A program made the translations under genes and the position numbers. From positions 39,231 through 103,230 of the forward strand of contig JAWKOJ010000013.1 in NCBI GenBank assembly GCA_041391245.1: a DNA stretch of 64,000 nt. Direction: 5' to 3'. This document shows, piece by piece, positions 6,431-47,997 of the stretch; position 1 is the stretch's first letter; the number at the start of each line of letters is the position of its first letter. Below the pieces are notes generated by a model. The model did no database searches and was not told the origin of the DNA. It worked only from the letters and a program-made list of their open reading frames with translations. Source of the DNA: Caldilineales bacterium. GTDB taxonomy: Bacteria > Chloroflexota > Anaerolineae > JAAEKA01.

Positions 6431-6487
6431 TGAGACCGTTGTTTGCTCATTCCGCCCTCGTCAACTGTCAGGGAAAGGGAACACCGG

Positions 6488-9400
6488 ATGGAAATCGCCA
6501 TCACAATCTTCGTCCGCCGCCACCAGAACCAGACCTACACCGTGACCGTGCCCAGCGCTCCCGGCATCACGGCCTTCGGCCCGACGCTGGAAGAGTGCAA
6601 GGGCGAGATTACCCTGGCCCTGATGCAGCGGCTGGCCGACATGGATCCGGCCCACGTCAACGATCTGGCCGCGACGCCCGGCACGCAACTGTTCAAGACG
6701 CAGGTGGAGCTGTTCCCCAGATACCCCGACGGCCGGCGGCGGCGCAACTCCTTCCACCTGCTCGTCAGCCTGATCCTCATCCCGGCCGACGGCCAGTTCA
6801 TGGTTCAAGCGCCGCTGCTGACCATGCAACCCTACAACCAGCCGCTGGTGTTCTTCAGCCGCCCGGAGGACGACCTGGAAGAACTGGCGAAGGCCGAGAT
6901 CAGCGAGTATTTTGGCGGCGCGCCGCTGGAGGTTCTCCAAAACTTCCAGGGAATGCGCTACGAGAACATCGAGACTCTGACCGTTGAGTTCACGCCCAAG
7001 TCGCCGATCCAGTCCGACAAGGATCGCAAGGAGATGGAGGAGGCGGATTTCTGGGCGCTCCGTTCCAGCGGCGTCAACCTGACCGCGCAGGCCAAGGAAA
7101 AGCAGCTAGGCCGCGCCTATCGCCGCGAGCCGGTCGTCGAGGAGGTGCTGCGCATCCTGGCGGGCGACAGCCGGCCGAGCTTGATCCTGCTGGGCGACTC
7201 TGGCGTCGGCAAGACCGCCATCGTGCACGAGGTGGCGCGCCGCATCCAGCGCAAGGAGTGCCCGGAGACGCTGCACGACCGCGAGCTGTGGTCGGTGACC
7301 GGCTCGTCGCTGCTGGCCGGCATGCAGTTCATCGGCCAGTGGCAGGAGAAGCTCACCAACCTGGTGCACGAGGTGCGCAAGAAGCGCCACATCCTCTTCG
7401 TCGAAGATATCGCCGGGCTGGCCGACGCCGGCCGCTGGTCGAAGAGCGACGAGAACATGGCCAGCTTCCTTAAGCCGTACATCCAGACCGGCGACGTGGT
7501 CATCATCGGCGAGAGCACGCCCCATCGGCTGCGCTACACGGACCGCCTGACGCCCGGATTTGTCAGCCAGTTCCGCACCGTGCCGGTTGAGGCGACCAGC
7601 ACCAGCGACACGCTGGCGGTTCTGGCGACCGTGGTCCACCGGCTGGAGAAGGAGAGCAACGTGCGCCTCCAGCCGTCGGCGCTGGAGGCGGCGGTCGAGC
7701 TTACCACCCGCTACCTGCCCTACCGCGCCCTGCCGGGCAAGGCAATCAGCCTGGTGGAGCAGGCCGTCGGCGACGTTGACGGGCAGCGGGGCGTCAACGA
7801 CAAGCGGCTGACCATCGATCGCCGCCACGTGGTCGCCAGCTTCACGCGCCAGACCGGCCTGCCGGAGTTCCTGCTCTCCGACGCCGCGCCGCTGGACATC
7901 ACCGCGGTGCGCAGCTACTTCGCCGAGCGTGTCATCGGGCAGGACGCGGCCGTCGACGCCATGACCGACCTGGTGGCCGTGATCAAGGCCGGACTGAACG
8001 ACCCGCACAAGCCGCTGGGCAGCTTCCTGTTCATCGGCCCGACCGGCGTCGGCAAGACCGAGATGGCCAAGACGCTGGCGTCCTACCTGTTCGGCGACGA
8101 GAAGCGGCTGCTGCGCTTCGACATGAGCGAGTACATGGACCCGGCGGGCGTCCGGCGGCTGATCGGTATGCCCGGCAGCGACAGCGAAGGCGAGCTTACC
8201 GGCCGCGTGCGCGCCCAGCCCTTCTGCGTGCTGCTGTTGGACGAGTTCGAGAAGGCCGATCCGCAGATCTACGACCTGTTCCTGCAGGTCATGGGTGAGG
8301 GGCGGCTGACGGACGCCACCGGCCAGACCACCTCCTTTCAGAACGCGGTGGTGCTGCTGACGTCGAACCTCGGCTCCGGCGCGCGCGAACAGCGCGGGCT
8401 TGGCCTGGCGGCCAGCAACCGCGCCGCGGGGGCGAGCGATGATCCGTCCTACTGGCGCAGCAAGATCGAGCAGTATTTCCGGCCCGAGTTCATCAACCGC
8501 ATCGACCAGGTGGTGGTCTTCCAGCCGCTCAGCCCGGAGGTGATGCGCCAGATCGCCCGCCGTGAACTGGGCCACGTGCTGATGCGCGAGGGGCTGGTGC
8601 GCCGCAACGTGCTGGCCGAGGTGGACGACAACGTGATCGACCTGCTGGTGGAGCAGGGCTTCGACGCGGCCTACGGCGCGCGCCCGCTGAAGCGGGCCAT
8701 CGAGCGTCTGGTGGTTGTGCCGCTGGCGCGCTTTCTGGCGGGACGGCCCGACGGCGGCGGCGACTTGCTGCGCCTGCGGCGCGCCGGCGACCAGGTGACC
8801 CTCAGCGCGATTCAGCTCAGCAACGCCGACCGGACGGCTACGGTGGAGTTGGGCGCATCGCCGCTGGAGGCCGATGGCAAGCGCCGCCGGCTGACCGACC
8901 GGGAGTTGGTCGAGGGATTCGCGTCGCTGCGGCTCAAGCTACAGGTCTGGAGCGAGCGGCCGGACGTCCTGAGATACGAGGATGAGCGCAGCCAGGCGTT
9001 GGCGGCGATGAACAAGCCGTCCTTCTGGGACAACACCTACGGGGCGCAGGAAACTGTGGAGAAGTTCTATCGCCTTGACAGGGTGCTGAAGCGCCTGCGC
9101 CAACTGACCGAACGCGCCGAATACCTGGAGGAGTTGGCCGGGCTGGTGCGGCGCGAGCGCGACTCCAGCTATCGCGGCGATCTGGCCGATGGCCTGGCCC
9201 GCCTGGAGCGCGACGCCGCCTACCTTGAGATCGAGCTGATGAGCGCCGGCAGTGTGGCCGGCAAGTACGCAATGCTGATCCTGCGCGTCGTCGGCCAGCG
9301 CCACGAGGAGGACGCGCAGGCGCTGATCCAACTGGCGCAGATGTATGCCCGCTGGGGCCAGCGCAAGGGCTACGAGATCAGCATGGCCAGGCTGGACCCG

Positions 9401-10021
9401 CTGGAGCTGACGGAAGCCCGCATGCGCGAGGCGCGCGAGCGTGTCGCACGCATGGCGGCCGACTACGATCCCGACGATTTCGAGGATCTTTCTGACCTGC
9501 CTGACATCGAGTTGGTAAGCTGCTCTGATGTGACAGCGGCCTATTTCCCCTACCGCTGGTATTCTCTTTCGGCCGGCGACGATGACAACAAGATCAAGCA
9601 ACTGGCGGGCCAGGGCGACGCGCGCGAGCTGGCCGTCCTGTTGGAAGGGGTCAACGTGCGCGGCTTCGTCACTGGCGAGCAGGGCCTGCACCGTTTCAAC
9701 GAGAAGCGTCCCAGCGGCGAGCGCAGCCAGACCCTGGTGGAAGTGGTGGTCGAATGGTTCGGTCCGCAGTGGATCGACCGGGAGCCCTGCTATCGCGCCA
9801 TGCGCTCGCCGGACTACATCCGGCTGTTTCTCCCCGACTACGCCCCGCCGGCAGGCCAGGCCGACCTGGAGGTCGCACGAGTCTACCAGCTTGGCGGCCA
9901 GGGGCACGTCCTAGACCCGCGCACCCGGGTCCGCCGCAACGACGTCCAGGCCGTCCTCGACGGTGATCTGGACGACTTCATCCTGGCGTTCCTGCGCGTG
10001 CAGCAGGAGCTTCTGTCGTAG
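6488..10021 (+). CDS. Fusion protein: HicB-like N-terminal fold + ClpA-type two-ring AAA+ ATPase + RF2-like (PCRF plus decoding-domain) C-terminal module without a GGQ domain
   Basis: ORF 6443..10021. Start placed at ATG 6488 (GGGAAAGGGA upstream). N-terminus: [33 protein letters not shown]. D1: [44 protein letters not shown]. D2: [80 protein letters not shown]. C-terminus: [87 protein letters not shown], which aligns from memory to RF2 domains 1, 2 and 4. Confidence 0.85.
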   Translation: [1177 protein letters not shown]

Positions 10022-10076
10022 GATAGGGCCTTGTGCCCGTTCTGCCTCCCGGAACGCCCACAAGGGGCTATCCTAC
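10018..10076. repeat. 59-nt quasi-palindromic element, copy 2 (inverted relative to copy 1)
   Basis: gtaggatagggccttgtgcccg-loop-cgcccacaaggggctatcctac. It starts on the stop codon of the fusion gene and overlaps the stop of the minus-strand gene ending at 10073. Confidence 0.85.
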
Positions 10077-11397
10077 AGTGATTCGGTAATCTGGCGCGTT
10101 TCGATGAACTGGATGCCCAGCGACTCCAGCTCCGCCAGCACCGGCTCGTAGATCTCCGGCACCACCGGCACCTGCACGCCGGTCAGATCGATCTGGCCCG
10201 TCAGGATCAGCTTCACGGCGATGGCGGCCGGCAGGCCAACCGTGCGCGCCATAGACGTGTCACCGTAGGGGATGCCGAAATCGACCATGGTTGACGTCAA
10301 CTGCTCGCGCCGGTCGGGGAACTCGGCCTCGAAGATGTGCTTGAGTATCAGCATGTCGCGCTCGCCGGGGGCGTAGCGCATCTTGTCCAGCATGGTCGCG
10401 GTCAGCACGTCGATGGGTGAACGGACGCCGGCCGGCAGCGCCTGGTCGCTCAGCAGCCCCAGCCAGATCAGGTTGTCCAGCACGAACGAGTCGGGAGGCA
10501 GATCCAGATGTTCCGCCAAATCGCCGCGCAGGCTGCCGGCGCTGTCGGTCAGACTGGCAGTCAGGCCGGCGTAGGTCAGGCCAGCCAGGTCGCGCGGCGT
10601 CTCGTCCAGCATGCCAAGCTGGGCCAGCTTGCGCAGCGTCTGGCACCAGCCCACGTTGCGCAGCGTGCCGCGGAAGAACGTCAACGGATTGGTGATGCCG
10701 TAGGTCTGCATGTAGGGTAAGCTGTCGCGGTTGGGATAGCCGTCGTAGTCGATCTCCTCGCCCTCCACGGCCACCGGCACAGTGACATAGTGGGGTCGAA
10801 CAGCTCGTCGCCCGGTATCTCCACGTCCTCACCGTTCCACAGGTAGTGCGCCGGGTTCTTGCCGGCCAGCAGCACGCCGCGGCTCCAGGAAAACTTGTAG
10901 CCCAGCGGGTTGTCGTTGGCGTCAGGCGCCGGAAGGCCGCCGCACCAAGACACGAAGCTGGTCACGCGCCCGCCGTCGCCCCGCACCGTGGATGATACGC
11001 ATCGCGGTCATGTGGTCGATGCCGGGATCGACCCCGATCTCGTTGAGCAGGATGACACCCGCGGCCCTCGCCGCCTCATCCAGCTCCGCCATGGCCGGCT
11101 TGACGTAGGACGTCGTGACCATGTGCACCCGGTTGGCGACGCACAGCCGCGCCACGGTCGGGTGATAGGCGTAGGGCAGCAGGCTGACGGCCAGATCCGC
11201 CCCGCGGATCAGCGCCTCCAGCGCGGCGGGGTCGTCGGAGTCGACGGCCAACGCGGCCGTTGGGATGGCCGGCCACCAGCGCCTCGGCCTTGCCGACCGT
11301 GCGGCTGGCGACCGTGACGTGAAAGTCGGGTTGGTCCAGCAGATAGCGCACCAGCGCGCCGGCGACCATGCCGGCGCCGAAAACTACGATCTTTCAT
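10073..11397 (-). pseudogene. Saccharopine dehydrogenase (NADP+, L-glutamate-forming type), reading frame broken about 4 times
   Basis: Conserved sequence is spread over minus ORFs 11209..11397, 11076..11369, 10922..11251, 10681..10986 and 10073..10780 (MK|IVVFGAGMVAGALVRYL, GVDPGIDHMTAMRIIH, PLGYKFSWS, VAVEGEEIDYDGYPNRDSLPY). Frame changes lie near 11389, 11265, 10985 and 10790; the last is in a C-run (gaccccac). Confidence 0.75.
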
Positions 11398-16042: not shown

Positions 16043-16384
16043 TTACCTTCCTACGCCGGCAAATCCAAGGCCGACGACGCCCGCGATGATCAGCCCGATG
16101 GACGCCAGCTTCAGCGCCGTCATTGGTTCGTGGAACCAGACAACGCCAATGGCCGCGATCAGCGCTGTGCCAAGGCCGGCCCAGATCGCGTAGACCAGGC
16201 TGACCTCCAATTGCTTGAGCGCCAGCGCGATCGCGCCCAGACTCAGGGCATAGCAGACGAACATGGCCACGGCATAAACCGGCCGGGTCATGCCCTCAGA
16301 CAGTTTCATGCTTGTGGTGCCGATGACCTCGAGCACGATGCCGACGAACAAGATCACCCAAGCCGTTGCAGGACTTCCTATCAT
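16043..16384 (-). CDS. SMR-family small multidrug efflux protein (EmrE/SugE-like)
   Basis: 113 aa, four predicted TM helices, LEVIGTTSMKLSEG and VYAIWAGLGTALIA motifs. Confidence 0.85.
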   Translation of the reverse strand: MIGSPATAWVILFVGIVLEVIGTTSMKLSEGMTRPVYAVAMFVCYALSLGAIALALKQLEVSLVYAIWAGLGTALIAAIGVVWFHEPMTALKLASIGLIIAGVVGLGFAGVGR

Positions 16385-17025
16385 TCGGCGGCCGCGTCGG
16401 CTTCCTCCGGCTCAACGTCCGGCTGGACCGTCTCGCCCAGCAGTTCGGCCAGGTTGATCTGCAATGCGGGGAACAGGTGCGGCTGGAACACCTCGCCGGC
16501 AGCTACGCGTGTCAACGCCAGGTAACCCTCCGGCGTCAGGCGGTATTCCTCCACCGTCAGGGATTGGCTGTCGATCAGCCAGTACCATGGCACACCAGCC
16601 TCGCGATAGGCGTTGAACTTGTCCACGCGGTCGCGGCTGGCGCTGGCCGGCGAGACGATCTCCACCACCAGATCCGGCGCGCCGATGATCCGCCCGCGCT
16701 CGGCCGAGTAGCGCTCCAGGTTATCCTCCGCCAGAAACACCAGGTCGGGAACGTAGACGCGCCGGCGCGACAACTGGACATCGATTTCAGGCCAAACAGA
16801 GCCAGAGTTCGACGCTGAGATGTGCTCATCGAGCGCGGCGCCCAATCGCATGATGATCTTCTGGTGGCGCGGATATGGACGAGGCATGGCAACCAACTTC
16901 CCTCCATCAAATTCATAGTCAGGCGGTCCCTCGGGCAGCGCGTCGAAGTCGGCCAGGGTCAGCGCCTGGCGGACAGGCAAGGCCGGCGCGCGGCTTTCGG
17001 TCATCGGTTTCACTGCTACAGCCAT
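16381..17025 (-). CDS. Uma2-family (DUF820) endonuclease
   Basis: ORF 16381..17100; start moved to ATG 17025 (GGAG 9 nt upstream). PDYEFDGGKLVAMP, PDLVFL, PDLVVEIVSPAS, AGVPWYWLID. Confidence 0.8.
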   Translation of the reverse strand: MAVAVKPMTESRAPALPVRQALTLADFDALPEGPPDYEFDGGKLVAMPRPYPRHQKIIMRLGAALDEHISASNSGSVWPEIDVQLSRRRVYVPDLVFLAEDNLERYSAERGRIIGAPDLVVEIVSPASASRDRVDKFNAYREAGVPWYWLIDSQSLTVEEYRLTPEGYLALTRVAAGEVFQPHLFPALQINLAELLGETVQPDVEPEEADAAAE

Positions 17026-19790
17026 GATGCAAACTCCCGGAAAGGATGCGGGGACAGCAGGCCAAGCCTGCCTGCCGCCATTTCGCGGATTATAGCGCAT
17101 GGTCTATCCATGGTCAATGTAGGGTCAACGCTTGCCACCTGGTGGACTCCGCGGGTGATTCGCGCGGCGCGCCGCGCGGCTACAGGACCTTGCTTGGCGC
17201 CGCGGCCGTATCTTGTGCACGGGATGCGGCAATCTACCATATATAGGGCCTGACTGACGCCGCCGTCGACCGCCGCACGCCGCTGGCAAAGGGCGCGGAA
17301 TTGGGATAAAACGGTGTTCTGTGGTATAATTTGGTCAACCAAAGTCAGTCGCACCACGGGGTTGCTGCCAGCTAATCAGCAGCCCCGTATTGTTTGAAAA
17401 TGCTACAAGGGAAACCCTCCTCTTTATGACACAACCCGATCCGCTGGAAATGGCTGAGCCGACCGAGGCGCCCGAAGACAACAACGCCGGAGCGATCCGC
17501 TCCGTCAACATAGAAAGCGAGATGCGCGAGGCGTATCTGGACTACGCCATGAGCGTCATCGTGTCGCGCGCGTTGCCCGACGCCCGCGACGGGCAGAAGC
17601 CGGTGCAGCGCCGCATCCTCTACGCCATGCACGACATGGGGATGCGCCCCACATCGCCCTATCGCAAGTCGGCCCGCATCGTCGGCGAGGTGCTGGGCAA
17701 GTACCACCCCCACGGCGACACGGCCGTCTACGACGCGATGGCGCGCATGGCCCAGGACTTCAGCCTGCGCTACCCGCTGGTGGACGGCCAGGGCAACTTC
17801 GGCTCGGTGGACGGCGACAGCCCGGCCGCCATGCGCTACACCGAGGCGCGCATGGCGCGCATCGCCGAGACGCTGCTGCAGGACATCGACATGGACACGG
17901 TGGATTGGCGCGAGAACTTCGACGGCAGCCTGCAGGAGCCGGAGGTGCTGCCGTCGATCCTGCCCAACATGCTGGTCAACGGTGCAGCGGGCATCGCCGT
18001 CGGCATGGCAACCAACGTGCCGCCCCACCACCTGGGCGAGGTCGCCGATGCGGTGGTGCATGTCATCGACAACTGGGAGCGGCTGGAAGAGATCACGCTG
18101 GAAGAGTTGATGGAGTACGTCAAGGGGCCCGACTTCCCCACCGGCGGCATCATCCTGGGGCTGGACGGGATCCGCTCGGCCTACGCCACCGGCCGCGGCC
18201 ACATCCAGATGCGAGCCGTCGCCGACATCGAAGAGTCGCGCGGCCGCTTCCAGATCATCATCACCGAGATACCCTACCAACTGAACAAGACCAACCTGCT
18301 GGAGCGCATCGCCGAACTGGCGCGCGAGGGCCGTCTCGACCAGATCAGCGACCTGCGCGACGAGTCGGACCGCACGGGCATGCGCATCGTCGTCGAGCTG
18401 AAGCGCAACAGCGCGCCGCGCAAGACCCTCAACCGCCTGTTCAAGTACACGCCCCTGCAGTCCACCTTTGCCATCAACATGCTGGCGCTGATCAACGGCG
18501 AGCCGCGGCTGTTGTCGCTCAAGCGGGCGCTCTACATCTTCATCGAGCACCGCCAGGAGGTGATCACCCGCCGCAGCCTGTTCGAGCTGGAGAAGCTGCG
18601 CCAGCGCGCTCACATCCTGGAAGGGCTGCGCATCGCCTTGCAGTTCCTCGATGAGGTCATCCAGACGATCCGCGAGTCCGAAAGCGCCGATGCCGCCCGC
18701 AACGCCTTGATGGAACGCTTTGGCCTCAGCGAGTTGCAGGCCCAGGCGATCCTCGACCTGCAACTGCGGCGGCTGGCCGCGCTGGAACAGCAGAAGATCG
18801 AGGACGAGTACAGCCAGGTCATGGCGCGCATCGAGTGGCTGGAGGACCTGCTGGCGAACCCGGAGAAGATCCTGGCCATCATCCGCGAGGAAACGGTCGC
18901 GCTGAAGGAACGCTTCAACGACGAGCGGCGGACCGTCATCTCCAACGAGGCCGTGGGCGAGATGCGCGAGGAAGACCTGACGCCCAACGACCCGGTGCTG
19001 ATCACCGTCACGCAGAACAGCTACGTCAAGCGGACCGGCGCGGCCCAGTTCCGCCCAGGGCCGCGGCGGCCGCGGCGTGCTGGGCATGGCGACCCGCGAC
19101 GAGGACGAGATCGCCCACCTGCACTTCGCACGCACACGACCACATCCTCTTCTTCACCAACCACGGACGCGCCTACTCAGACCGCGCCTGGAACCTGCCC
19201 GAGGCGGCCCGCACCGGCAAAGGGCTGCCGCTGGTCAACGTCCTCAACCTGGCGCCGCGCGAGACGGTGACCTCGCTGGTGCTGGTGGAGGACTTCGACG
19301 AGGCGCTACATCAGCCTGCTGACCACCCAGGGCCGCATCAAGCGGGTGGAGATGAGCGAGTTTGCCAACGTCCGTTCGACGGGCATCATCGCGATGAACC
19401 TGGACCCCGGCGACGAGCTGAGCTGGAAACGCACCACCAGCGGCGACCAGGAACTAATCGTTGTCACCGCCGGCGGGCTGGCGCTGCGCTTCGACGAAAC
19501 GCGGTGCGTCCCATGGGCCGCACCGCGGCCGGCGTCTGGGCGATTGCCTGCGCCCCGGTGACCGTGTGACCGGCTTCGACGTCGTCAACCCCCACGGCGA
19601 CCTGCTGGTGGTGACCGCCAAAGGCTACGGCAAGCGCACCCCGCTGGACCAATACGCCCCCAAGGGCCGCTACACTCAGGGGATTCTCACCATCGACCAC
19701 AACCGGCTGGATGAGACCGGTCCGGTCATCACCGGCCGCGTCGTGGACCCCGACGACCAGATCTCGCTGATTACCAGCGGCGGCATCATC

Positions 19791-19943
19791 ATCCGCATGA
19801 AAGTCAGCGACGTCAGCCAGATGGGCCGGGCCACCCGCGGCGTCAAGATGGTCAACCTGGACGACGGCGACCTTGTATCCGCCTGCGCCCGCATCCGCGC
19901 AACGGAGGCCAGCAAGGTCGCGGAGGAAGCGGCTGGCCCGGCG
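19791..19943 (+). repeat. Direct repeat copy 1 (gyrA 3' coding segment); 65-bp identical core at 19819-19883
   Basis: Aligns to 20788-20940 at a constant offset of 997 bp. Confidence 0.9.
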
Positions 19944-20070
19944 GCGAGCTGGCGGTGGCGCTGTCAGCTACCGCAGCGCAAGGCTGAAGCGCAGCGCGGC
20001 TGCAACTACGGCAATTCCAGGGCTGGCGACAACCCGACTCCTGAACAGCCTCGCACATCGTCAATAGTGC

Positions 20071-20099
20071 TTGTTGGCGCCCCTGCGCTGTGCTATACT
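20071..20099 (+). promoter_or_regulatory. Promoter of the vapBC cassette
   Basis: TTGTTG (20071-20076), 17 nt, TGc-TATACT extended -10 (20091-20099), 33 nt upstream of ATG 20133. Confidence 0.55.
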
Positions 20100-20132
20100 C
20101 GATGCGACTTCTGATTCCAGAGGATCGAAACT

Positions 20133-20384
20133 ATGAACACCGCGACTACCCAGCAGATCATCGATCAGATCAGATCCCTGCCGCCGGAAAGCCTGGATGA
20201 CCTGGCAGTTTATGTTGACTTCCTGCGCTTCAAGGCCAGCCAGGCTGGAGACGCTGAGCCAGGCGAGAAGCCGCTGCGCGTCATCAACCTGCGCGGCATA
20301 TTGAGGGGCCACGACTTCTCGCCTGAGGCACTGGCTGAGGCCAGGCACGAGATGTGGCACAGCCTGGAAACCAGCGAGCCATGA
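20133..20384 (+). CDS. Type II antitoxin (DUF2281/VapB-like)
   Basis: 83 aa; MNTATTQQIIDQIRSLPPESLDDLAVYVDFLRFK; stop overlaps the toxin start (ATGA). Confidence 0.7.
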   Translation: MNTATTQQIIDQIRSLPPESLDDLAVYVDFLRFKASQAGDAEPGEKPLRVINLRGILRGHDFSPEALAEARHEMWHSLETSEP

Positions 20385-20785
20385 AGCGCTACGTGGCCGA
20401 CACCCAGTGCTTGCTCTGGTATTTGTCTGACGATCGCCGCCTGCCTCGGTCAATCAACCGAGTATTCCGGGCCGCAGACGACGGCAATGCTCAGATTCTC
20501 GTGCCCAGTATCGCACTGGTCGAGGCCATTTTTCTTTCCCAGCGGCAACGTGTCAGTGACGCCCTGCTGAAACGCGTGCTTGACCTGTCGGAAGATCCTG
20601 AGACCAGCATTGCTGTCGTTCCGCTTGACATGGCGGTTGTGCGTACCGTGAATGACTTCGGGCCGGCAGGGGTGCCCGAACTTGCTGATCGCGTTATCGC
20701 CGCGACCGCACGCGCGTTGAATCTCCCTCTCCTTACCGTGGATCATGCCATCGCAGTCAGCGGGCTTGTCGATGTGGTCGCGTGA
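20381..20785 (+). CDS. vapC: PIN-domain toxin (VapC-like)
   Basis: ORF 20354..20785; start at ATG 20381 (MKRYVADTQCLLWYL...). Acidic residues and a C-terminal DRVIAATARALNLPLLTVD typical of PIN. Confidence 0.8.
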   Translation: MKRYVADTQCLLWYLSDDRRLPRSINRVFRAADDGNAQILVPSIALVEAIFLSQRQRVSDALLKRVLDLSEDPETSIAVVPLDMAVVRTVNDFGPAGVPELADRVIAATARALNLPLLTVDHAIAVSGLVDVVA

Positions 20786-20787
20786 AT

Positions 20788-20970
20788 CGGTATCATCATT
20801 CGTATAAAGTTCAGTGACGTCAGCCAGATGGGCCGGGCCACCCGCGGCGTCAAGATGGTCAACCTGGACGACGGCGACCTCGTCTCCGCCTGCGCCCGCA
20901 TCCGCGCGACGGAGGCCAGCAAGGCAGCGGAGGAAGCGGCCGCGCCCAGCGGAGAGCCAACGGCAGCATA
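20788..20970 (+). other. Displaced native gyrA 3' end (direct repeat copy 2 plus original stop)
   Basis: Reads GIIIRIKFSDVSQMGRATRGVKMVNLDDGDLVSACARIRATEASKAAEEAAAPSGEPTAA-stop (TAG 20968-20970), followed by a terminator. Confidence 0.75.
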
Positions 20971-20990
20971 GACGCCCGCTCGCACGACCA

Positions 20991-21028
20991 ACGAGAAACG
21001 CCGCCAGTAAGTGGGCGGCGTTTCTCGT
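20991..21028. terminator. Hairpin terminator of the original gyrA 3' end
   Basis: 15-bp perfect stem acgagaaacgccgcc / ggcggcgtttctcgt, 8-nt loop. Confidence 0.65.
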
Positions 21029-21054
21029 TGAACTACAAAAGACTGCGACGTTTC

Positions 21055-21385
21055 TTATGTTGGATACGCCCGCAGCCCGGCGCGCATCGCCCCTTCGATG
21101 GTGCCATCGAGCCTGCCGGCGCCGGGAAATAACCATTCATCAGGGTCGTACCCCTCATCGCTGTACTTGTAGATGGCGAACTCCCAGTTGATCATGTCGC
21201 CAGTGTAGGTCAGCCGGCAGACAGGCCAGAATCCCCCGCCGCGGCGTTCATGCCCCAGATACATGAACGCGCCCGCGGTAGCTGGTCACGTAGTGCGCCC
21301 AAGGCTCGTCCTTCAGCGTCCCGGTATTAAATGGGCCACAATGGCATCCGCTTGCTGCTTGATTTCAGGGGTGATCTTTGGTTTC
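21055..21385 (-). pseudogene. Hypothetical protein, frameshifted
   Basis: ORF 21055..21264 (MYLGHERRGGGFWPVCRLTYTGDMINWEFAIYKYSDEGYDPDEW...). It continues upstream in other frames (MPETK..., ...AIVAHFNTGTLKDEPWAHYVTSYRG). Confidence 0.4.
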
Positions 21386-21434
21386 CGGCATCTGCGGCAT
21401 CCTCGACCAGTCAAGCCATCACTCTACTAACGCT

Positions 21435-21712
21435 TTACTCGTCGAGTGGCAGTTGAAACCGTCCAAGCACCACACCAGGCACGGTGATGTCTTCATCCGG
21501 AAGCCCCAACGCATTGCATATCCGTCCAGGCGCAGCGCTACATCTTTGAGTTGTCTGTTGGTAGCGGTTTGCAGAATGCGAAATCGGGATCGGCAGGAAA
21601 GCCGACGATCTGCCCGTCGGTGAGCTCCAAAAAAGATATATGATCTCGCACCAAACGCGGATCGCGGTTGGTTCTACCAGAAATCGGGTTCACTGTTTGT
21701 CATGGTACTCAT
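21435..21712 (-). pseudogene. DUF2442-like protein, degraded (3 or more frame breaks)
   Basis: Pieces LELTDGQIVGFPAD / RILQTATNRQLKDVALRLDGYA / LPDEDITVPGVVLGRFQLPLDE lie in different frames. About 50% GC. Confidence 0.45.
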
Positions 21713-21926
21713 GATAGGCTTTCAGCAGAAGGTCGTGAAACTCGAAGATTCAGGCGCTCCATCTCGCGGCAACGTACGGCGAGATCTTGCTGCGGGCAAG
21801 CTGCACGGATCTGAACCAGAACTTGCACTCGCTATCTGATGTGGCAACATGAATATGGGGTGGTTCGCCGCGCCTATCAGAGTAGAAATGAAAGCGAAAT
21901 CCGCGAACTCGTAGTACGGTCGGGAT
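21690..21926 (-). pseudogene. DUF4160-like protein, degraded (no ATG, internal stop and frame breaks)
   Basis: IPTVLRVRGFRFHFYSDRRGEPPHIHVATSDSECKFWF...LLLKAYHEYHDKQ. The listed ORF 21722..22042 is partly out of frame. Confidence 0.45.
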
Positions 21927-22091
21927 GCTACTAGCTTCCGACCGTTGGCGAACTTAAGCGCTACGCCCGACGCCTCGGGCAAGATTACAGTATAAAGCAG
22001 CATGGGCAAAGGATGCGTTGATAGCCTACCGAAACAATTCAAGCATGATGTTGCTGGAAGATGGCGTCTTTAAGGCACCGGCGGCGCGGAA

Positions 22092-22102
22092 CTGTGGTAC
22101 AA
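22092..22102 (+). promoter_or_regulatory. Extended -10 promoter-like box, copy 1 (TGTGGTACAAT)
   Basis: Part of a 48-nt segment (22062-22109) repeated at 22274-22321. Confidence 0.45.
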
Positions 22103-22108
22103 TACGGG

Positions 22109-22282
22109 CCATGGAAACCCAGTCTGCGGTGGAGAAATTTGGCGCCGGACGTTTTGGAGCGCTGCGCGCCGACATGCTGTTGACGCCGATCCAGCGACCG
22201 GCGAATCAGCTTCTGGTAAGAAACGTGATGCCTGGTGAGTGAAGTTGCATCCAACGGACGCCGCCGGAAAGGCGGCGTCTTT
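22109..22282 (+). other. Candidate small transcription unit (sRNA or 43-aa peptide METQSAVEKF...)
   Basis: Bounded by promoter copy 1 and an intrinsic terminator. I recognise no known RNA family. Confidence 0.3.
22257..22282 (+). terminator. Intrinsic terminator
   Basis: gacgccgcc-ggaaa-ggcggcgtc followed by TTT. Confidence 0.7.
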
Positions 22283-22303
22283 GCTGTGCCGGCGGCGCGG
22301 ATG

Positions 22304-22314
22304 TGTGGTACAAT
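22304..22314 (+). promoter_or_regulatory. Extended -10 promoter-like box, copy 2 (TGTGGTACAAT)
   Basis: Lies 38 nt upstream of ATG 22352. Confidence 0.5.
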
Positions 22315-22351
22315 ACGGGCCAGTGATTCCCGATCCTTGATACATACGACC

Positions 22352-23728
22352 ATGCCTCTCAAACCCATCCTCAAGCAAGGCCCCGGCCTGCACACCGAGA
22401 CCATGGCCGAGCCGGACGCGGACCGGCTGGCGGAGACGCTGGTCGCGTTTGCCAACGGCGACGGCGGCGTGATCGTGCTGGGCGTCAACGCCGATGGCAC
22501 GCCGGCCGACGGGCTGCTGGGCGACGAGATGGAGGAAGCGCTGCGAGCTGCCTTGGTGCAGTGCCGGCCGCCGATCCGCACCGAGTGGGAACAGATGGAG
22601 ACGGCCCACGGCGCGGTGGCCGCGATCCGGGTGCCCCGCTCCACCGAGCTGCACTCGCTGGCCGACGGCCGTGTGCTGATCCGCAGCGGCGCCGAGAACC
22701 ATCCCCTCAGCGGCGAGCAGGTGCGCCAACTGGCGTCGGGCAAGTCGTCGGGCGACTTCGAGATGCAGGACGTGGCCGGCGCGCTCCTGGCCGATCTGGA
22801 CAACGACATCATCAAGGACTACATCGCCCGCCGCGAGGAAAAGCAGGGCCGCCAGATCAAGCTGCCCCAGGACCGCCTCCTGCAGCAGATCGGCGCGCTG
22901 ACGCCCGATGGCAAACCGACGGTGGCCGGGCTGCTGCTGTTCGGACTGGAGCCGCAGTTCTATCTGCCGCAGTCGGGGCTGACTTTTGTGCGCTTCAGCG
23001 GCACGGAGCTGCGCGGGCCGGGCGGGCTGCCCGGCTACAGCCGCCGCGACGAGATCACCGGCCCGCTGGCGCAGATCATCGAGCGCACGTGGTCGATCCT
23101 GATGCAGGAGATGCGCCTGGAGGCGGTGGTCACCGGGCTGCGCCGCGAGGAACGCACCGAATACCCGACCATTGCCGTGCGCGAGGCGCTGGTCAACGCG
23201 GTCTGCCACCGCGACTACCGGCTGACCGGCCGGCGCATCGAGATCCGCATGTTCGACGACCGCATGGAGATCCACAGCCCCGGCGGGCTGCCAGGCTACA
23301 TCACCATCGACAACATCGTCGAGGAGCACTTCAGCCGCAACCCGCGCCTGGTCAATGGGTTGTATCACTGGAACTACATCGAGGAGCTGGGGCTGGGTGT
23401 GGACAAGATGATCGAAGCCATGGTGCAGGCCGGCCATCCGCAGCCGGAGTTCAAGGCGACGCCCCACAGCTTCACCGTAACCCTGAAGAACGCCAAGGAG
23501 CGCGCCACGCAGCAGGCCGGCCCGGCCTGGGAAAGCAGCATGAACGAGCGCCAGCTGCGCGCCATCCAGCACATGCGCGAGAACGGACGCATCACAAGCC
23601 GCGACTATCAGGACCTGTGTCCCGACGTGTCGCCGGAGACGCTGCGGCTGGATATGGTGGACCTGACCGACCGCGGCATCGTGATGAAGGTCGGCATGAA
23701 GCGCGGCACGTATTACATCATGAGGTAG
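22352..23728 (+). CDS. AlbA_2 (Schlafen-like) + HATPase_c_4 + winged-helix DNA-binding protein
   Basis: ORF 22235..23728; start at ATG 22352. ETLVAFANGDGGVIVLGV, REALVNAVCHRDYRLTGRRIEIRMFDDRMEIHSPGGLP, C-terminal ITSRDYQDLCPDVSPETLRLDMVDLTDRGIV. Confidence 0.8.
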   Translation: MPLKPILKQGPGLHTETMAEPDADRLAETLVAFANGDGGVIVLGVNADGTPADGLLGDEMEEALRAALVQCRPPIRTEWEQMETAHGAVAAIRVPRSTELHSLADGRVLIRSGAENHPLSGEQVRQLASGKSSGDFEMQDVAGALLADLDNDIIKDYIARREEKQGRQIKLPQDRLLQQIGALTPDGKPTVAGLLLFGLEPQFYLPQSGLTFVRFSGTELRGPGGLPGYSRRDEITGPLAQIIERTWSILMQEMRLEAVVTGLRREERTEYPTIAVREALVNAVCHRDYRLTGRRIEIRMFDDRMEIHSPGGLPGYITIDNIVEEHFSRNPRLVNGLYHWNYIEELGLGVDKMIEAMVQAGHPQPEFKATPHSFTVTLKNAKERATQQAGPAWESSMNERQLRAIQHMRENGRITSRDYQDLCPDVSPETLRLDMVDLTDRGIVMKVGMKRGTYYIMR

Positions 23729-23732
23729 TGCC

Positions 23733-24323
23733 ATGAACAACACACGAAACAACACCTGGGCAATGGCCATCGTCGCCGTACTCGTTGTCTTGTTGGTGGC
23801 GATGTGCGCCTGCCTGTTTGGGCTGGCCGTAGGCGTGGGCATCGGCCAGGCGCGGGCGCGCGTCCAGCTTGAGAACATTGTGCCGATAGTACCAGAGGTC
23901 GTCCCCCGTGCCACGCCGGCATTTCCCCTGCTTCCGACGATCCCGGAGTCGCCCGATACGCCGGACATGCCGGACATGCCCGAGATGCGCGACCTGGAAG
24001 AGATGCTGGACATGATGAGCGGCGCGCTGGTGAGCGAAGTGGTCGCCGACGGTCCGGCTGATCAGGCCGGCATCGCGCCGGGCGACGTGATCGTGGCCGT
24101 CGATGGCGAGAACGTCACCCGCGACACGTCGCTGGCCGAACTGGTCAGGCAGTATGCGCCGGGGGACGAGGTAACGCTTACGCTGGTGCGCATGAGCCAG
24201 GGAGACATGAACCAGGACGAGGTCGTCGTCACACTGGGCGCCAACCCAGACGACGACTCGGTTGGGTTCCTGGGCGTTTTCGTTGTGCCTTTCCTTCAGA
24301 GCGATGAGCAAGGCACGCCCTAG
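23733..24323 (+). CDS. Membrane-anchored PDZ-domain protein
   Basis: 196 aa; one N-terminal TM helix; GALVSEVVADGPADQAGIAPGDVIVAVDGENV; 4 nt after the upstream stop. Confidence 0.75.
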   Translation: MNNTRNNTWAMAIVAVLVVLLVAMCACLFGLAVGVGIGQARARVQLENIVPIVPEVVPRATPAFPLLPTIPESPDTPDMPDMPEMRDLEEMLDMMSGALVSEVVADGPADQAGIAPGDVIVAVDGENVTRDTSLAELVRQYAPGDEVTLTLVRMSQGDMNQDEVVVTLGANPDDDSVGFLGVFVVPFLQSDEQGTP

Positions 24324-34735: not shown

Positions 34736-35618
34736 CTAGAGTTCGGCCACGGCCGGGATGATCTCCCTGGCAAAGGTTTCCAGTGGCGTGATCTCGTAGA
34801 CATCCGGCATGTTGAAGATCGCGTGGGTGAACCCCATCGCTGAAAGATCCTGGATGTGCTTAATGACGCCGTCGACCGTGTCTTTGCCCGACAGGTGTAC
34901 AGTGCCGAGGGTGGTTTTCTCGACGGTGTCGTAGTCGCGGCCCAGCGCCTCGCAGTGGGCTTTGAGGGTATCGAGCGCCTCCTGCATGTTCTTCCTGCCG
35001 ACCCAATCGCCGATGTTGCAGGCATCGGCATACTGGGCCACCATGCGCAGTGTCTTCTTCGGACCGGTGCCGCCGATCATGATGCGCGGGTGCGGCTGCG
35101 AGAGTGGGCGCGGATTGTTGGTGATCGCCGGGGCCGAAAGATGCGTGCCCTCGAAGGAAGTCTCATGGCCGGCCCAGAGCGCCTTGGCCAGCCGCAGATT
35201 GTCCTCCAGCAGCTCGAAACGCTCGGCGGTTGACGGGTAGGAATCCCGTAGCCGAGTGCCTCGTCCTCGTACCATCCTGCGCCGATGCCAAGATAAGCGC
35301 GCCCGCCGGAGACAACGTCCAGGGTAGTAACCATCTTCATCAGCACCGATGGGTGACGATAGATAACGCCCGTCACCAGCGCGCGAGATAGGCCCGCTCC
35401 GTCAGCCCGGCAAGGTAGCCAAGCACCGTGTAGCTCTCCAGCATCGGGTCGGTGTAGGCTTCGCCGAACAGCCCCTTGATCTGATAGTAGTGGTCCATCA
35501 CCCAGAAGCTGTGAAAGCCACCGTCCTCAGCAGCGGTGACGATTTCCTTGAGCTTGGGCCGGATGGCGGCTGTGCCGCCGGGATACTTGAACGATGGAAT
35601 CTGTAGTCCGATGTGCAT
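34736..35618 (-). pseudogene. LLM-class (F420-dependent-like) oxidoreductase, two frame breaks
   Basis: MHIGLQIPSFKYPGG...FWVMDHYYQ (ORF 35373..35822), then [35 protein letters not shown] (35077..35376), then [17 protein letters not shown]...PAVAEL (34736..35275). Confidence 0.75.
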
Positions 35619-36248: not shown

Positions 36249-37245
36249 TTACCAGGCGTATGCCTGAGGCGCTTCGCCGCCGGGGCCGGGCCAGATCTCA
36301 TCAAGCCGTCTCAGGGTTTCGTCGTCAAGTTGATGCTGGCGGCGCGCACTGCGCTTTCCAGTTGCTCCAGGGTGCGCGGGCCGATGATCGGCGCGGTCAC
36401 CACGGGGTTGTGCAGCAGCCAGGCCAGCGCAACCTCGCCAGGGGATGTCCGATTTCCCGGCACAGATGCTCGTACTTCTCCAGTTGCCCGCGTTGGCTTC
36501 GACTTCTTTAACGAAGTTCTCGTCGGTGCGGCGACCCGACTCGTATTTCTCCAGCGCCCCGCCCAACAGTCCGCCAGCCAGCGGGCTCCACGGGATCAGC
36601 CCCAGACCGTAGTGGCGGCAGGCGGGGATCACCTCCAGCTTCGATCATGCGGTTGTCCAGATGGTAGATACTTTGCTCGCTCACCAGACCCATGAGTCCC
36701 CGCCTGGAGGCTTCCTGGCAGGCGGTGGCGATGTCCCATCCGGCGAAGTTGCTGGAACCGACGTAGACGACCTTACCCTGCTTGACCAGCGCGCCGAAGG
36801 CTTGCCAGACTTCGTCCCAGGGACAGGCGCGATCGATGTGGTGCATCTGATAGAGGTCGATCCAATCCGTTTGCAGGCGCTTCAGGCTGCCTTCGCAGTG
36901 CTTGCGGATCTTGTAGGCGCTCAGGCTGCGGCCGTCGCTGTTGACTTCCGGCAGATTCGCCTTACGGTCCACGGGATTGAAGACCTTGGTTGCCAGGACC
37001 ACGGCATCGCGCCGTCCACCGCCCTGGGCGAACCAGCGCCCGATGATCTCCTCGGTGTGGCCGCGTTCCACAGTCCAGCCGTACACATCGGCTGTGTCGA
37101 AGAAGTTGATTCCCAGCTCCAGGGCACGATCCATGATGGCAAAGCTGTCCTCTTCGGATGTATGCCAGCCAAAGTTCATCGTTCCCAGGCAGAGGCTGCT
37201 GACCAGCACGCCGTGCTTTCCAAGTCGTTTGTTCGATACGGACAT
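36249..37245 (-). pseudogene. Aldo/keto reductase, about three frame breaks in the C-terminal third
   Basis: ORF 36508..37245 (LGKHGVLVSSLCLGTMNFG...IDLYQMHHID). It continues in 36249..36632 and a third frame (IPACRHYGLGLIPWSPLAGG, LALAWLLHNPVVTAPIIGPRTLEQL, LRRLDEIWPG). Confidence 0.75.
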
Positions 37246-46659: not shown

Positions 46660-47997
46660 TTATTGCCCTGCTACGCGATCCACGAACAGCCCCGACAGCC
46701 CAACATACGCCTCAGGCTGCAACATCGCGCCGATCTGCTCCGGCGACAGGTAGCGGGTGACGCGTTCGTCCTCGGCCAGAAGGTCGCGCAGGGGACGGTC
46801 CTGCTCGAAGGCCAGCATCGACGCCTCGTGGACGACTTCGTGGGCGGTTTGCCTGCCCACGAAGTCGCCCAGCCTGAGCATCACCGCCTCAGACAGGATC
46901 AGGCCGTGCAGCGCGCCCACGTTGCGCCGCATCCGCTCCGGGTAGACGATGAGATGCTCGATCACCCGCAGCGTGTGCGCCACCGCGCCGCCGGCCAGGA
47001 TGCTGGCCTCGGGCACGCACGCCCATTCGATGTGCACCGCCGACCAGTCGCGCTCGTGCTCCGACTCCATGGCCGACAGCACGGTGTTCTGGATGCCGCG
47101 CACCATCCTCGCCTCGGCCATGATCCCCTCGCAGACCATCGGGTTGCGTTTGTGGGGCATGGTGCTGGACCCAACCTTGCCGCGCACGTAGGGCTCTTCC
47201 AGTTCGGCCACTTCCGACTTCTGCAACAGGATCACCTCGTGGGCAATCTTGCTCATGGTCATGGCGATCATGGCCAGCAACGAAACGTACTCGGCGAAGC
47301 CGTCTCTCGCCGGGTGCCAGCAGATCTCCGGCACGCGGAGCCCTAGCTCGGCCATCAGCAGCCGCTGGATCTCCAGTCCTTGCTCGCCCACCGAGGCCAG
47401 TGTACCGGCGGCACCGGCGAACTGGCCGACCAGCACCGCGGCCCGGCCTGCTCCAGCCGTTCGATGTGGCGGCGCACCTCGGCCAGCCAGATCGCGACCT
47501 TGAAGCCGAAGGTGATGGGCAGCGCGTGCTGGCCATGGGTGCGGCCGGGCAGGATCGTGTCGCGCTCGCGGCGCGCCAGATCGGCCAGCGCGCCGGCCAG
47601 CGCCTGCAGGTCGCGCAGGATGATCGCGCACGCCGCTTTGACCTGCAACACCAGCCCGGTGTCGGTCACGTCCTGAGTGGTGGCACCCCAGTGCACCCAG
47701 CCGCCGGCGTCCCCTTCGCACAGCCTCGCCAGTTGCCAGATCAGCGGCACCAGCTCGTGAGTCGTGTCGTAGATGCCCTGGCGCAGCGGCGAGGTCGATG
47801 TTTTCGACGCGCGCCTGGCGGGTGATCTCAGCGGCCGCGGCCGCGGGCACCAGACCGACCGCCGCTTCAGCCCGCGCTAACGCGGCCTCGTAATCGAGCC
47901 AGCACTGCAGCAGCGCCTCGTCGCTGAACACAGCGCGCAGCTCGTCGGTGCCGTACATGTCGCGGAAGATGAGAGAGTCGATGGCGTTGGATGGCAT
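46660..47997 (-). pseudogene. Fumarate-lyase superfamily enzyme (adenylosuccinate lyase / 3-carboxymuconate cycloisomerase-like), two frame breaks
   Basis: ORF 46660..47997 carries GSSTMPHKRNP. Its middle (about 47440-47780) is garbled. The correct frame there is ORF 47355..47750 (VHWGATTQDVTDTG, PGRTHGQHALPITFG). Confidence 0.8.

Follow-up and report, generated by a model that had tools for sequence, protein, structure and literature searches.

Cis-mobilizable elements (CIMEs) are integrase-less derivatives of ICEs (integrative and conjugative elements) or IMEs (integrative and mobilizable elements) and retain both attachment sites, attL and attR (PMC6323972, PMC5704250). In those described, such as the Streptococcus thermophilus CIME at the fda 3′ end, the flanking direct repeats include the 3′ end of a conserved gene, which is kept intact by sequence from the element; genes for integration and transfer are missing, and the cargo is small. 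Here we describe a locus that shares these traits, a vapB-vapC toxin–antitoxin (TA) pair lodged in the 3′ end of gyrA. It lies in a 64-kb stretch of DNA (hereafter, the window) from an uncultured Chloroflexota bacterium. The window is chromosomal, has a GC content of 64% and carries housekeeping genes, and the metagenome-assembled genomes nearest to it are labelled Anaerolineales, Chloroflexia or Caldilineae. The insertion is genuine: an integrase-less, CIME-like TA islet that sits in a hotspot 3′ of gyrA and is so far a one-off.

The duplicated gyrA 3′ end and its insert

Two copies of the gyrA 3′ end (19781-19933 and 20788-20940) lie in direct orientation, with a start-to-start spacing of 1007 nt and 92% identity over 153 nt. 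When gaps are allowed, the similarity covers 170 nt (90.6% identity) and reaches the native stop codon. An exact core of 65 nt (19809-19873 = 20816-20880) lies within the repeat in the window, and this core grows to 92 nt in a short-read version of the locus (copy 1 19809-19900; copy 2 to 20907). In the whole 64 kb there are just two direct repeats of at least 45 nt with copies within 6 kb of each other, and the gyrA repeat is one of them; hence it is not a chance occurrence. The second is a 63-nt promoter duplication at 22058/22269. No other repeat-flanked TA pair is present in the 64-kb window.

The initial annotation of this DNA had already reported a 153-nt repeat of the gyrA 3′ end and had given copy 2 the right coordinates, but its start for copy 1 and its offset were each 10 off. 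At the offset that it gave, 997 bp, there is no alignment (81/300 matches, versus 185/300 at 1007), and we rejected that value. Its 65-bp identical core was correct in length and in the copy 2 position, while the copy 1 part belongs at 19809-19873. Copy 2 lies in no long open reading frame (ORF). It follows in frame directly past the vapC stop and ends in the native tail ...KAAEEAAAPSGEPTAA, with a TAG at 20969-71. Behind it is a perfect hairpin (20989-21030), at which the gyrA transcription unit natively ends and which vapBC now presumably shares. Synteny with a related locus (L029) supports the earlier assignment of the natural gyrA C-terminus, stop and terminator to copy 2, except that no intrinsic terminator was called at the hairpin, which lacks a T-run.

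The short-read version comes from an exact-protein look-up of VapB plus VapC, which returned one further record, a 975-bp Logan contig (L001, run SRR32022564). Over 19963-20845, contig and window agree completely. The left end of the contig lies 29 nt ahead of the earliest base by which copy 1 and copy 2 can be told apart (19901), and its right end lies 30 nt past the last distinguishing base of the other arm (20815). Logan assemblies are built with k=31, and such ends are the expected output of a k=31 graph for a unique segment with a repeat on both sides. It follows that, in short-read data, the cassette is physically joined to gyrA-like sequence on both sides.

Six differences between the window and L001 are packed into 19874-19962, next to 883 nt of complete identity: at four CpG sites L001 has C and the window T, at one site L001 has C and the window A, and one nucleotide is deleted from the window. 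The deletion, at ~19934, lies where L001 carries GCCGCG and the window reads 'GCTG-G', and with it the frame of copy 1 runs to 20114. The description of copy 1 as reading on into cassette DNA thus holds for the window but is due to this deletion; in L001, copy 1 encodes ...EEAAAPGGEPAVAPSATAAQG, with a tail of its own and a stop at window position 19985-19987. With the missing base restored from L001, the insert therefore supplies a complete replacement GyrA C-terminus. Tails of the same 'PGGEP' type are native in related GyrA proteins, e.g. P0273. As in CIMEs, then, flanking direct repeats are present and copy 1 completes the gyrA ORF with its own tail and stop.

The body of gyrA starts at ~17390, and the full-length GyrA closest to its product is P0141 (94% identity). 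Compared with the intact 879-aa gyrA of a related locus (L015), the window lacks 2, 2, 2, 1 and 1 nt at ~19050, 19126, 19302, 19497 and 19545, and these five deletions are mostly of CG from CGCG. Other genes in the window are split as well (saccharopine dehydrogenase, luciferase-like, aldo-keto reductase and adenylosuccinate lyase; split genes lie at 10073-11251, 34736-35275, 36508-37245 and 46660-47997), and so is gyrA in the related long contigs L030 and L031. Given this, we take the gyrA frameshifts to be assembly errors rather than signs of a dead gyrase. The deletions in gyrA and the mismatches with L001 resemble errors of base calling or polishing linked to methylation, or else local heterogeneity among strains.

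To compare the two copies, the short-read (L001) version of copy 1 was used. Between the copies, the 5′ arm has 7 differences in 28 positions, the core 0 in 92 and the proximal 3′ arm 3 in 39, after which the tails diverge with an indel. The contrast between 5′ arm and core is significant (Fisher P = 2e-5). Judged against five outgroups, copy 1 is ancestral at 6/7 of the 5′-arm sites, and copy 2 is ancestral at 3/3 of the proximal 3′-arm sites; copy 2 also has the native hairpin and the native downstream gene. By these sites, copy 1 is a native 5′ arm with a putatively foreign 3′ arm, and copy 2 is the converse, a putatively foreign 5′ arm with a native 3′ arm. Such a reciprocal mosaic points to one crossover between the chromosome and DNA that carried a diverged gyrA end. 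In the core, no differences (0/92) separate the copies, whereas every relative differs from them (5/90 to 16/89). This implies a donor that was very closely related, or else homogenisation of the core in the course of recombination or later.

The two copies enclose a 145-nt leader, vapB, vapC and 3 nt, and nothing further. There is no pseudogene debris in the insert, which argues against decay from a larger element. Both the sequence and Pfam bear out the annotated content, namely only a promoter, an antitoxin and a PIN toxin, as well as the placement of the toxin stop (20783-20785) 3 nt 5′ of copy 2, in the same frame. In calling the promoter strong, the annotation went too far. The motif TTGTTG-17-TGcTATACT is present and has an extended -10, but its -35 matches at just 3/6 positions and the consensus scan made no call. 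Homologous cassettes have TGnTAnAAT motifs at the corresponding position. A ribosome-binding site, GAGGA, is found at 20121-25.

The DUF2281 match of the antitoxin is below threshold (E=0.003; 18.5 bits vs a cut-off of 26.5); a small gene homologous to vapB lies upstream of every VapC relative examined. The two genes are co-oriented, and the vapC start and vapB stop overlap as ATGA. The acidic residues of the PIN domain (D7, E48, D103 and D121) are invariant in 22 homologues, and the toxin looks active. On the basis of domain and gene order, the pair is assigned to the VapBC/PIN class. Neither protein had a match in NCBIfam, PADLOC or PDB sequences. The cassette is compositionally foreign: its GC content is 0.58-0.61, and GC at third codon positions is 0.76 in vapB and 0.65 in vapC versus 0.89-0.92 in gyrA.

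We then looked for a recombinase. Pfam scans of ~57 ORFs across the window turned up no integrase, relaxase or transposase, in agreement with the annotation, which had recorded neither integrase nor transposase. Likewise, no integrase adjoins gyrA in six related loci. A cognate ICE, IME or prophage with an integrase at the same att site was absent from those six gyrA loci, from a viral collection and from the literature searched, but relatives are covered thinly, and this absence is weak evidence. The literature searched yielded nothing relevant on integration at gyrA or on vapBC pairs flanked by repeats. Several known vehicles could be rejected. Viral contigs contained no relatives of VapC or of the gyrA end, which speaks against a phage or prophage origin. 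There are no tRNA or Rfam hits in the window, which removes an RNA gene or tRNA as the target. For a transposon or insertion sequence, there is no transposase, there are no inverted repeats at the ends of the insert, and the duplication is both long (~180 nt) and non-identical. For an integron cassette, there is no integrase in the window, and an attC site would not fit into the 3 nt that separate the vapC stop from copy 2.

Homologues of VapC are numerous (150 at E<1e-5) and come mostly from Chloroflexota metagenomes. The nearest vapBC relatives, at 56-84% on the amino-acid level, occupy at least four other contexts (3′ of DUF6079 genes, between cyclase and OMP-decarboxylase genes, beside PMT_2 and beside GFO/IDH genes), and none of those fetched is near gyrA or has duplicated gene ends. 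Their nucleotide similarity to the window (71-75%) is confined to the coding region, 20139-20780; beyond the coding sequences it breaks off, which leaves no conserved termini of an element. These data lend no support to the idea, raised in the initial annotation, of a TA-only cassette that targets gyrA as a mobile family; the arrangement has been seen in this lineage only. A search for the same cassette elsewhere, proposed as a check, gave just the 975-bp L001 by exact-protein look-up, and the homologues are without such flanks.

Two of the relatives have surroundings of another kind. In L002 and L027, homologous vapBC lies 3′ of a DUF6079 (BREX/PglY-like) gene and is bracketed by palindromic repeats that resemble repetitive extragenic palindromic (REP) sequences (L002 5498-7463, in arrays of 59- and 210-nt units; L027 1266-1315 and 2133-2182). 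L002 also has a Y1 transposase (RAYT-like) gene 4 kb downstream.

Table 1. Features of the gyrA-vapBC locus, with positions in the window
Feature	Position	Strand	Details and basis
gyrA body, 5′ of the duplicated segment	17390..19780	+	three-frame translation; alignment to L015; Pfam DNA_gyraseA_C
Repeat copy 1 (attL-like)	19781..19958	+	native 5′ arm 19781-19808; identical core 19809-19873 (to 19900 in the short-read contig); putatively foreign 3′ arm
Replacement GyrA C-terminal tail and stop	19901..19987	+	...KVAEEAAAPGGEPAVAPSATAAQG, then TGA 19985-19987; L001 alignment, after correcting a 1-nt deletion near 19934
Putative vapBC promoter	20071..20099	+	-35 TTGTTG 20071-76; 17-nt spacer; TG-extended -10 TATACT 20094-99 (TGcTATACT)
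vapB-like antitoxin, 83 aa	20133..20384	+	weak DUF2281 match
vapC PIN-domain toxin, 134 aa	20381..20785	+	PF01850, E=2e-10, 41.7 bits vs cut-off 23.6
Repeat copy 2 (attR-like)	20788..20971	+	putatively foreign/derived 5′ arm 20788-20815; core 20816-20880 (to 20907); native 3′ arm; DNA_gyraseA_C E=1.7e-10
Perfect 17-bp hairpin between convergent gyrA and small minus-strand gene	20989..21030	.	inverted repeat; matching hairpin at the same position in L029
Small conserved minus-strand gene, right-hand native flank	21055..21264	-	homologous to a 93-aa ORF, L029 1105-1386
AlbA_2/Schlafen + HATPase_c_4 gene, conserved right border of the variable region	22235..23728	+	Pfam; 3′ of gyrA in L030, L029 and L034

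The gyrA 3′ end in related genomes

If the cassette is an insertion, relatives should include empty sites, and the initial annotation had proposed to look for them. Such sites were found in five related loci (L015, L014, L031, L030 and L029), each of which has a single gyrA 3′ end and no vapBC. In L015 and L014, gyrA is intact and the downstream genes are different. In L030, gyrA is followed after 19 bp by an AlbA_2/HATPase_c_4 gene and a PDZ gene, which correspond to window 22235-24323. In L029, the gyrA stop has the same position as that of copy 2, and the order is gyrA end, hairpin, BrnT/BrnA on the minus strand, a near-identical second hairpin, a small minus-strand gene and the AlbA_2 gene. 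The second of these hairpins corresponds to the single hairpin of the window (20989-21030). Together with the insert's own tail and stop, the hybrid repeats and L001, the empty sites uphold the topology that the annotation had put forward, that of an element in the 3′ end of a gene, bringing a replacement 3′ end.

The BrnT/BrnA pair of L029 (419-932, minus strand) lies between hairpins at 352-383 and 1045-1074 (AAACGCCGCC...GGCGGCGTTT). It is a second TA insertion at the gyrA locus, flanked by a local duplication. Since L030, L029 and the window differ in what lies between gyrA and the AlbA_2 gene, this gap is a small variable hotspot, with different TA pairs in different lineages.

In one further contig, L034 (JGI, 1015 bp), ~230 nt that have no relation to gyrA directly abut the last ~80 gyrA codons (1-471), and past the gyrA end come a small minus-strand gene and then the AlbA_2 gene. 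For the foreign part, Pfam gave no match, and none of the fetched loci was similar to it. L034, a single 1-kb contig, may carry the right-hand junction of another insertion into the 3′ end of gyrA.

The GyrA proteins themselves vary at their extreme C-terminus. In the 90% cluster of P0141 (P0261-P0274), GyrA is identical over ~830 aa and then ends in unrelated tails, which begin after ...EASKAE or ...EANKAEE and are of at least five types. Those after ...EASKAE are GEAQEPAG, GEVQQAAGPAPA and AEQGAIQGQS; those in the second subgroup are ETIEAEAAPPPPTS and EEASTPGGEPVTP. Different tails on identical bodies mark the extreme gyrA end as a frequent recombination boundary, and the sequences suggest that breakpoints are common inside the last 10-15 gyrA codons in this clade.

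Origin of the insertion

A single reciprocal crossover of some kind, whatever the enzyme, is in our view the probable origin of this structure. In such a scheme, ~1 kb of foreign DNA would have recombined once, reciprocally, with gyrA inside the 65-92-nt identity, in the manner of a Campbell-type single crossover. The foreign DNA would have been made up of the final ~60 codons from a closely related gyrA, complete with a tail and stop of their own, followed by the 145-nt leader with its promoter and by vapB-vapC, presumably in the form of a circular intermediate. After the crossover, gyrA would end in the foreign tail (copy 1) with the cassette next to it, and the displaced native gyrA end, stop and hairpin would remain behind the cassette as a non-coding remnant (copy 2).

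Host homologous recombination acting on the ~180 nt of gyrA homology is the most likely agent of this crossover, and we put insertion by this specific route at about an even chance. It is favoured because the insert is minimal and free of debris, because similarity extends beyond the core on both sides, and because no integrase or cognate element was found. Once in place, vapBC would be expressed both by read-through from gyrA and from the extended -10 promoter in its leader, with transcription probably ending at the native hairpin. PIN toxin and labile antitoxin would together act as an addiction module. Loss of the cassette through recombination between the repeats would then poison the cells, and the unstable insert would be kept beside an essential gene. 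A penalty of this kind on deletion would explain the persistence of an intrinsically unstable structure.

Several observations weigh against insertion by host recombination. A 1-kb circle of gyrA′ and vapBC needs an earlier event, and there is no evidence for that event. The arrangement is present in one lineage only, with no second copy seen. Nor was a circular form or an excised site seen, in a k=31 graph in which integrated, circular and empty forms are inseparable across the 92-nt core. The window assembly is noisy, with five frameshifts in gyrA, so that a pseudogenised gyrA copy is possible. The changes in the 5′ arm of copy 2 fall at third codon positions in 6/7 cases and are mostly C>T, and they are also compatible with neutral AT-biased decay (P ~0.2 by estimate). 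We had considered this third-position bias as proof of a foreign coding origin and rejected it, as AT-biased decay in GC-rich sequence gives a similar picture. Finally, the identical core could equally be explained by later gene conversion of a duplication formed in situ.

The last two points bring up an origin in situ, in which a linear vapBC fragment was captured by homology-facilitated illegitimate recombination or template switching, ~180 nt of the cell's own gyrA were duplicated, and divergence and gene conversion of the core came later. Insertions with one-sided homology are documented in transformable bacteria (PMC3240628). The BrnT/BrnA pair of L029, between near-identical hairpins, hints that insertions with local duplication may recur. 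A core that is closer between the copies (0/92) than to any relative (5/90 to 16/89) favours this account, and C>T changes in the 5′ arm of copy 2 are what neutral decay in a GC-rich genome would leave. However, fresh copies are identical, and to arrive at 7 changes in 28 nt beside 92 unchanged positions (P = 2e-5) an extra conversion step would be needed that ends at the arm borders. Moreover, it is the constrained coding copy, copy 1, that has the derived 3′ arm, whereas the non-coding copy 2 is ancestral there, which is the opposite of simple decay; and the foreign tail resembles the native 'PGGEP' tails of related GyrA. Because the derived 3′ arm is in the constrained copy and the changes are so unevenly placed, we regard an in-situ origin as distinctly unlikely.

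As the main alternative, the locus could be a CIME-like satellite. Here the repeats would be attL and attR, and the tyrosine recombinase behind them would have its gene elsewhere (on an ICE, IME or prophage that uses the gyrA 3′ end), and the cassette would move only with that integrase. Integration at a 3′ end with the frame restored by element sequence is a hallmark of tyrosine recombinases (PMC6323972, PMC5704250), and the gyrA homology on the insert stops at about the gyrA stop codon. The unrelated DNA against the last ~80 gyrA codons in L034, from another lineage, is possibly a second insertion, and the swapping of tails among otherwise identical GyrA proteins fits as well. Against these stand the lack of an integrase in the 64 kb and beside gyrA in the six related loci, the lack of relatives of the cassette and gyrA end in viral contigs, and the lack of a gyrA integration site in the literature searched. 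The insert holds no remnant of a larger element, and the similarity derived from the gene reaches past the core in both directions, more than a pure att site would require. On balance, this account is possible but somewhat unlikely. As no cognate integrative element was found, we have not filed the cassette as a member of the CIMEs.

One caveat common to all of these accounts is that the structure might be an assembly artefact, either because reads of two strains were wrongly joined or because a noisy long-read assembly expanded the region in error. Indels are many in the window, with five frameshifts in gyrA and other genes fragmented, and its six differences from the short-read contig are crowded into 19874-19962. 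Yet in L001, independently, the cassette has gyrA-like sequence at either end and the copy-specific bases are those of the window, the copies differ at fixed positions in both data sets, and the arrangement is biologically coherent, with the frame restored, a stop codon in place and the hairpin shared. An artefact is, therefore, very improbable.

Returning to insertion by host recombination, one may extend it to a selfish element that spreads by 'homology hitchhiking'. This would be a TA pair with the end of an essential gene as its sole attachment device. The RecA of any related cell that acquired it could integrate it, with gyrase left unharmed, and its loss would be punished by the toxin. 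We consider such an element doubtful. It is just as unlikely, in our estimate, that the swapped GyrA tails, the BrnTA pair of L029 and the foreign DNA of L034 are footprints of one such process. If they were, small cassettes would find in the gyrA end of this Chloroflexota clade a landing pad that calls for no recombinase.

Surroundings and comparison with known systems

The small minus-strand gene on the right-hand flank of the insertion (21055-21264) has no Pfam or NCBIfam match and is probably longer, being frameshifted in the window (21265). Between it and the AlbA_2 gene is a ~700-nt stretch of low GC (52-54%) without a recognisable gene (21340-22331), which is not in L029. The stretch is followed by the 63-nt direct repeat (22058-22120 / 22269-22331, 79%), which is a duplication of the AlbA_2 promoter region (GTGGTACAAT). 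Its first copy could drive a 43-codon ORF from 22111.

On the other side of gyrA, a Uma2-family gene (16381-17100) is located between an SMR transporter gene and gyrA in the window and in L031 and is not in L015 or L014. Given this patchy distribution among relatives, the upstream side of gyrA is variable too. The Uma2 nuclease matches a candidate defence family, PDC-S03, and the AlbA_2/Schlafen protein (22235-23728) matches a PADLOC pAgo model (E=2e-30, residues 62-458) as well as SIR2-associated models. With such matches on both sides, gyrA sits among defence-like genes. Elsewhere in the window (6443-10021), a 1192-aa ClpB/ClpC-like double-AAA protein has an additional C-terminal region with a match to the PCRF (peptide chain release factor) domain (E=1.2e-6); this fusion is unusual, if real and not read-through caused by an assembly indel.

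If our interpretation is correct, an addiction module can lodge in an essential gene harmlessly, by bringing a spare gene end and without a recombinase of its own, and the gyrA end is a small variable hotspot for TA pairs in poorly studied Chloroflexota. There are practical consequences as well. As a marker in phylogenetics and for resistance, gyrA is in common use, and yet duplication or exchange of its 3′ end can occur. Assemblies of short reads will break there; in the one example at hand, the cassette turned up as an orphan contig ~1 kb long. Being one instance only, with no mobility observed, the locus is a useful case rather than a new principle.

How, then, does it compare with what is known? 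The CIMEs come close in architecture, but for them a cognate integrase-bearing element is to be expected, and none was found here. The insert is, in addition, only ~1 kb long and without debris. Its repeats are long and derived from the gene (~180 nt, with an exact core of 65-92 nt) in place of a short core, and neither a Chloroflexota host nor gyrA as a target was met in the literature searched.

In gene content, the pair resembles chromosomal type II VapBC systems, with a small overlapping upstream antitoxin, a PIN toxin with four acidic residues, a putative promoter of its own, lower GC than the host, a patchy distribution and varied contexts. Those systems, however, are usually intergenic and free of duplicated gene ends, whereas this one lies inside the coding end of an essential gene with hybrid copies on both sides.

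Integron cassettes (attC) are also ~1 kb in size and cargo-only, often consist of a TA pair alone and have their recombinase encoded elsewhere. The pdif modules moved by XerCD are likewise ~1-kb cargo units, often with TA genes, and their recombinase is encoded elsewhere. In contrast to both, our locus has no attC-like or dif-like site and no integron integrase, and it is flanked by direct repeats of a protein-coding gene end rather than by short inverted recombination sites.

The topology itself, homology–insert–homology, is that of Campbell-type single-crossover integrants, such as those of suicide plasmids, and of transformation merodiploids (PMC3784515, PMC3240628). In these, too, the repeats are hybrid, and the polymorphisms of donor and recipient switch at the crossover. 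Such integrants are laboratory constructs or transient, whereas the one described here is a natural and apparently stable allele with an addiction module as its insert.

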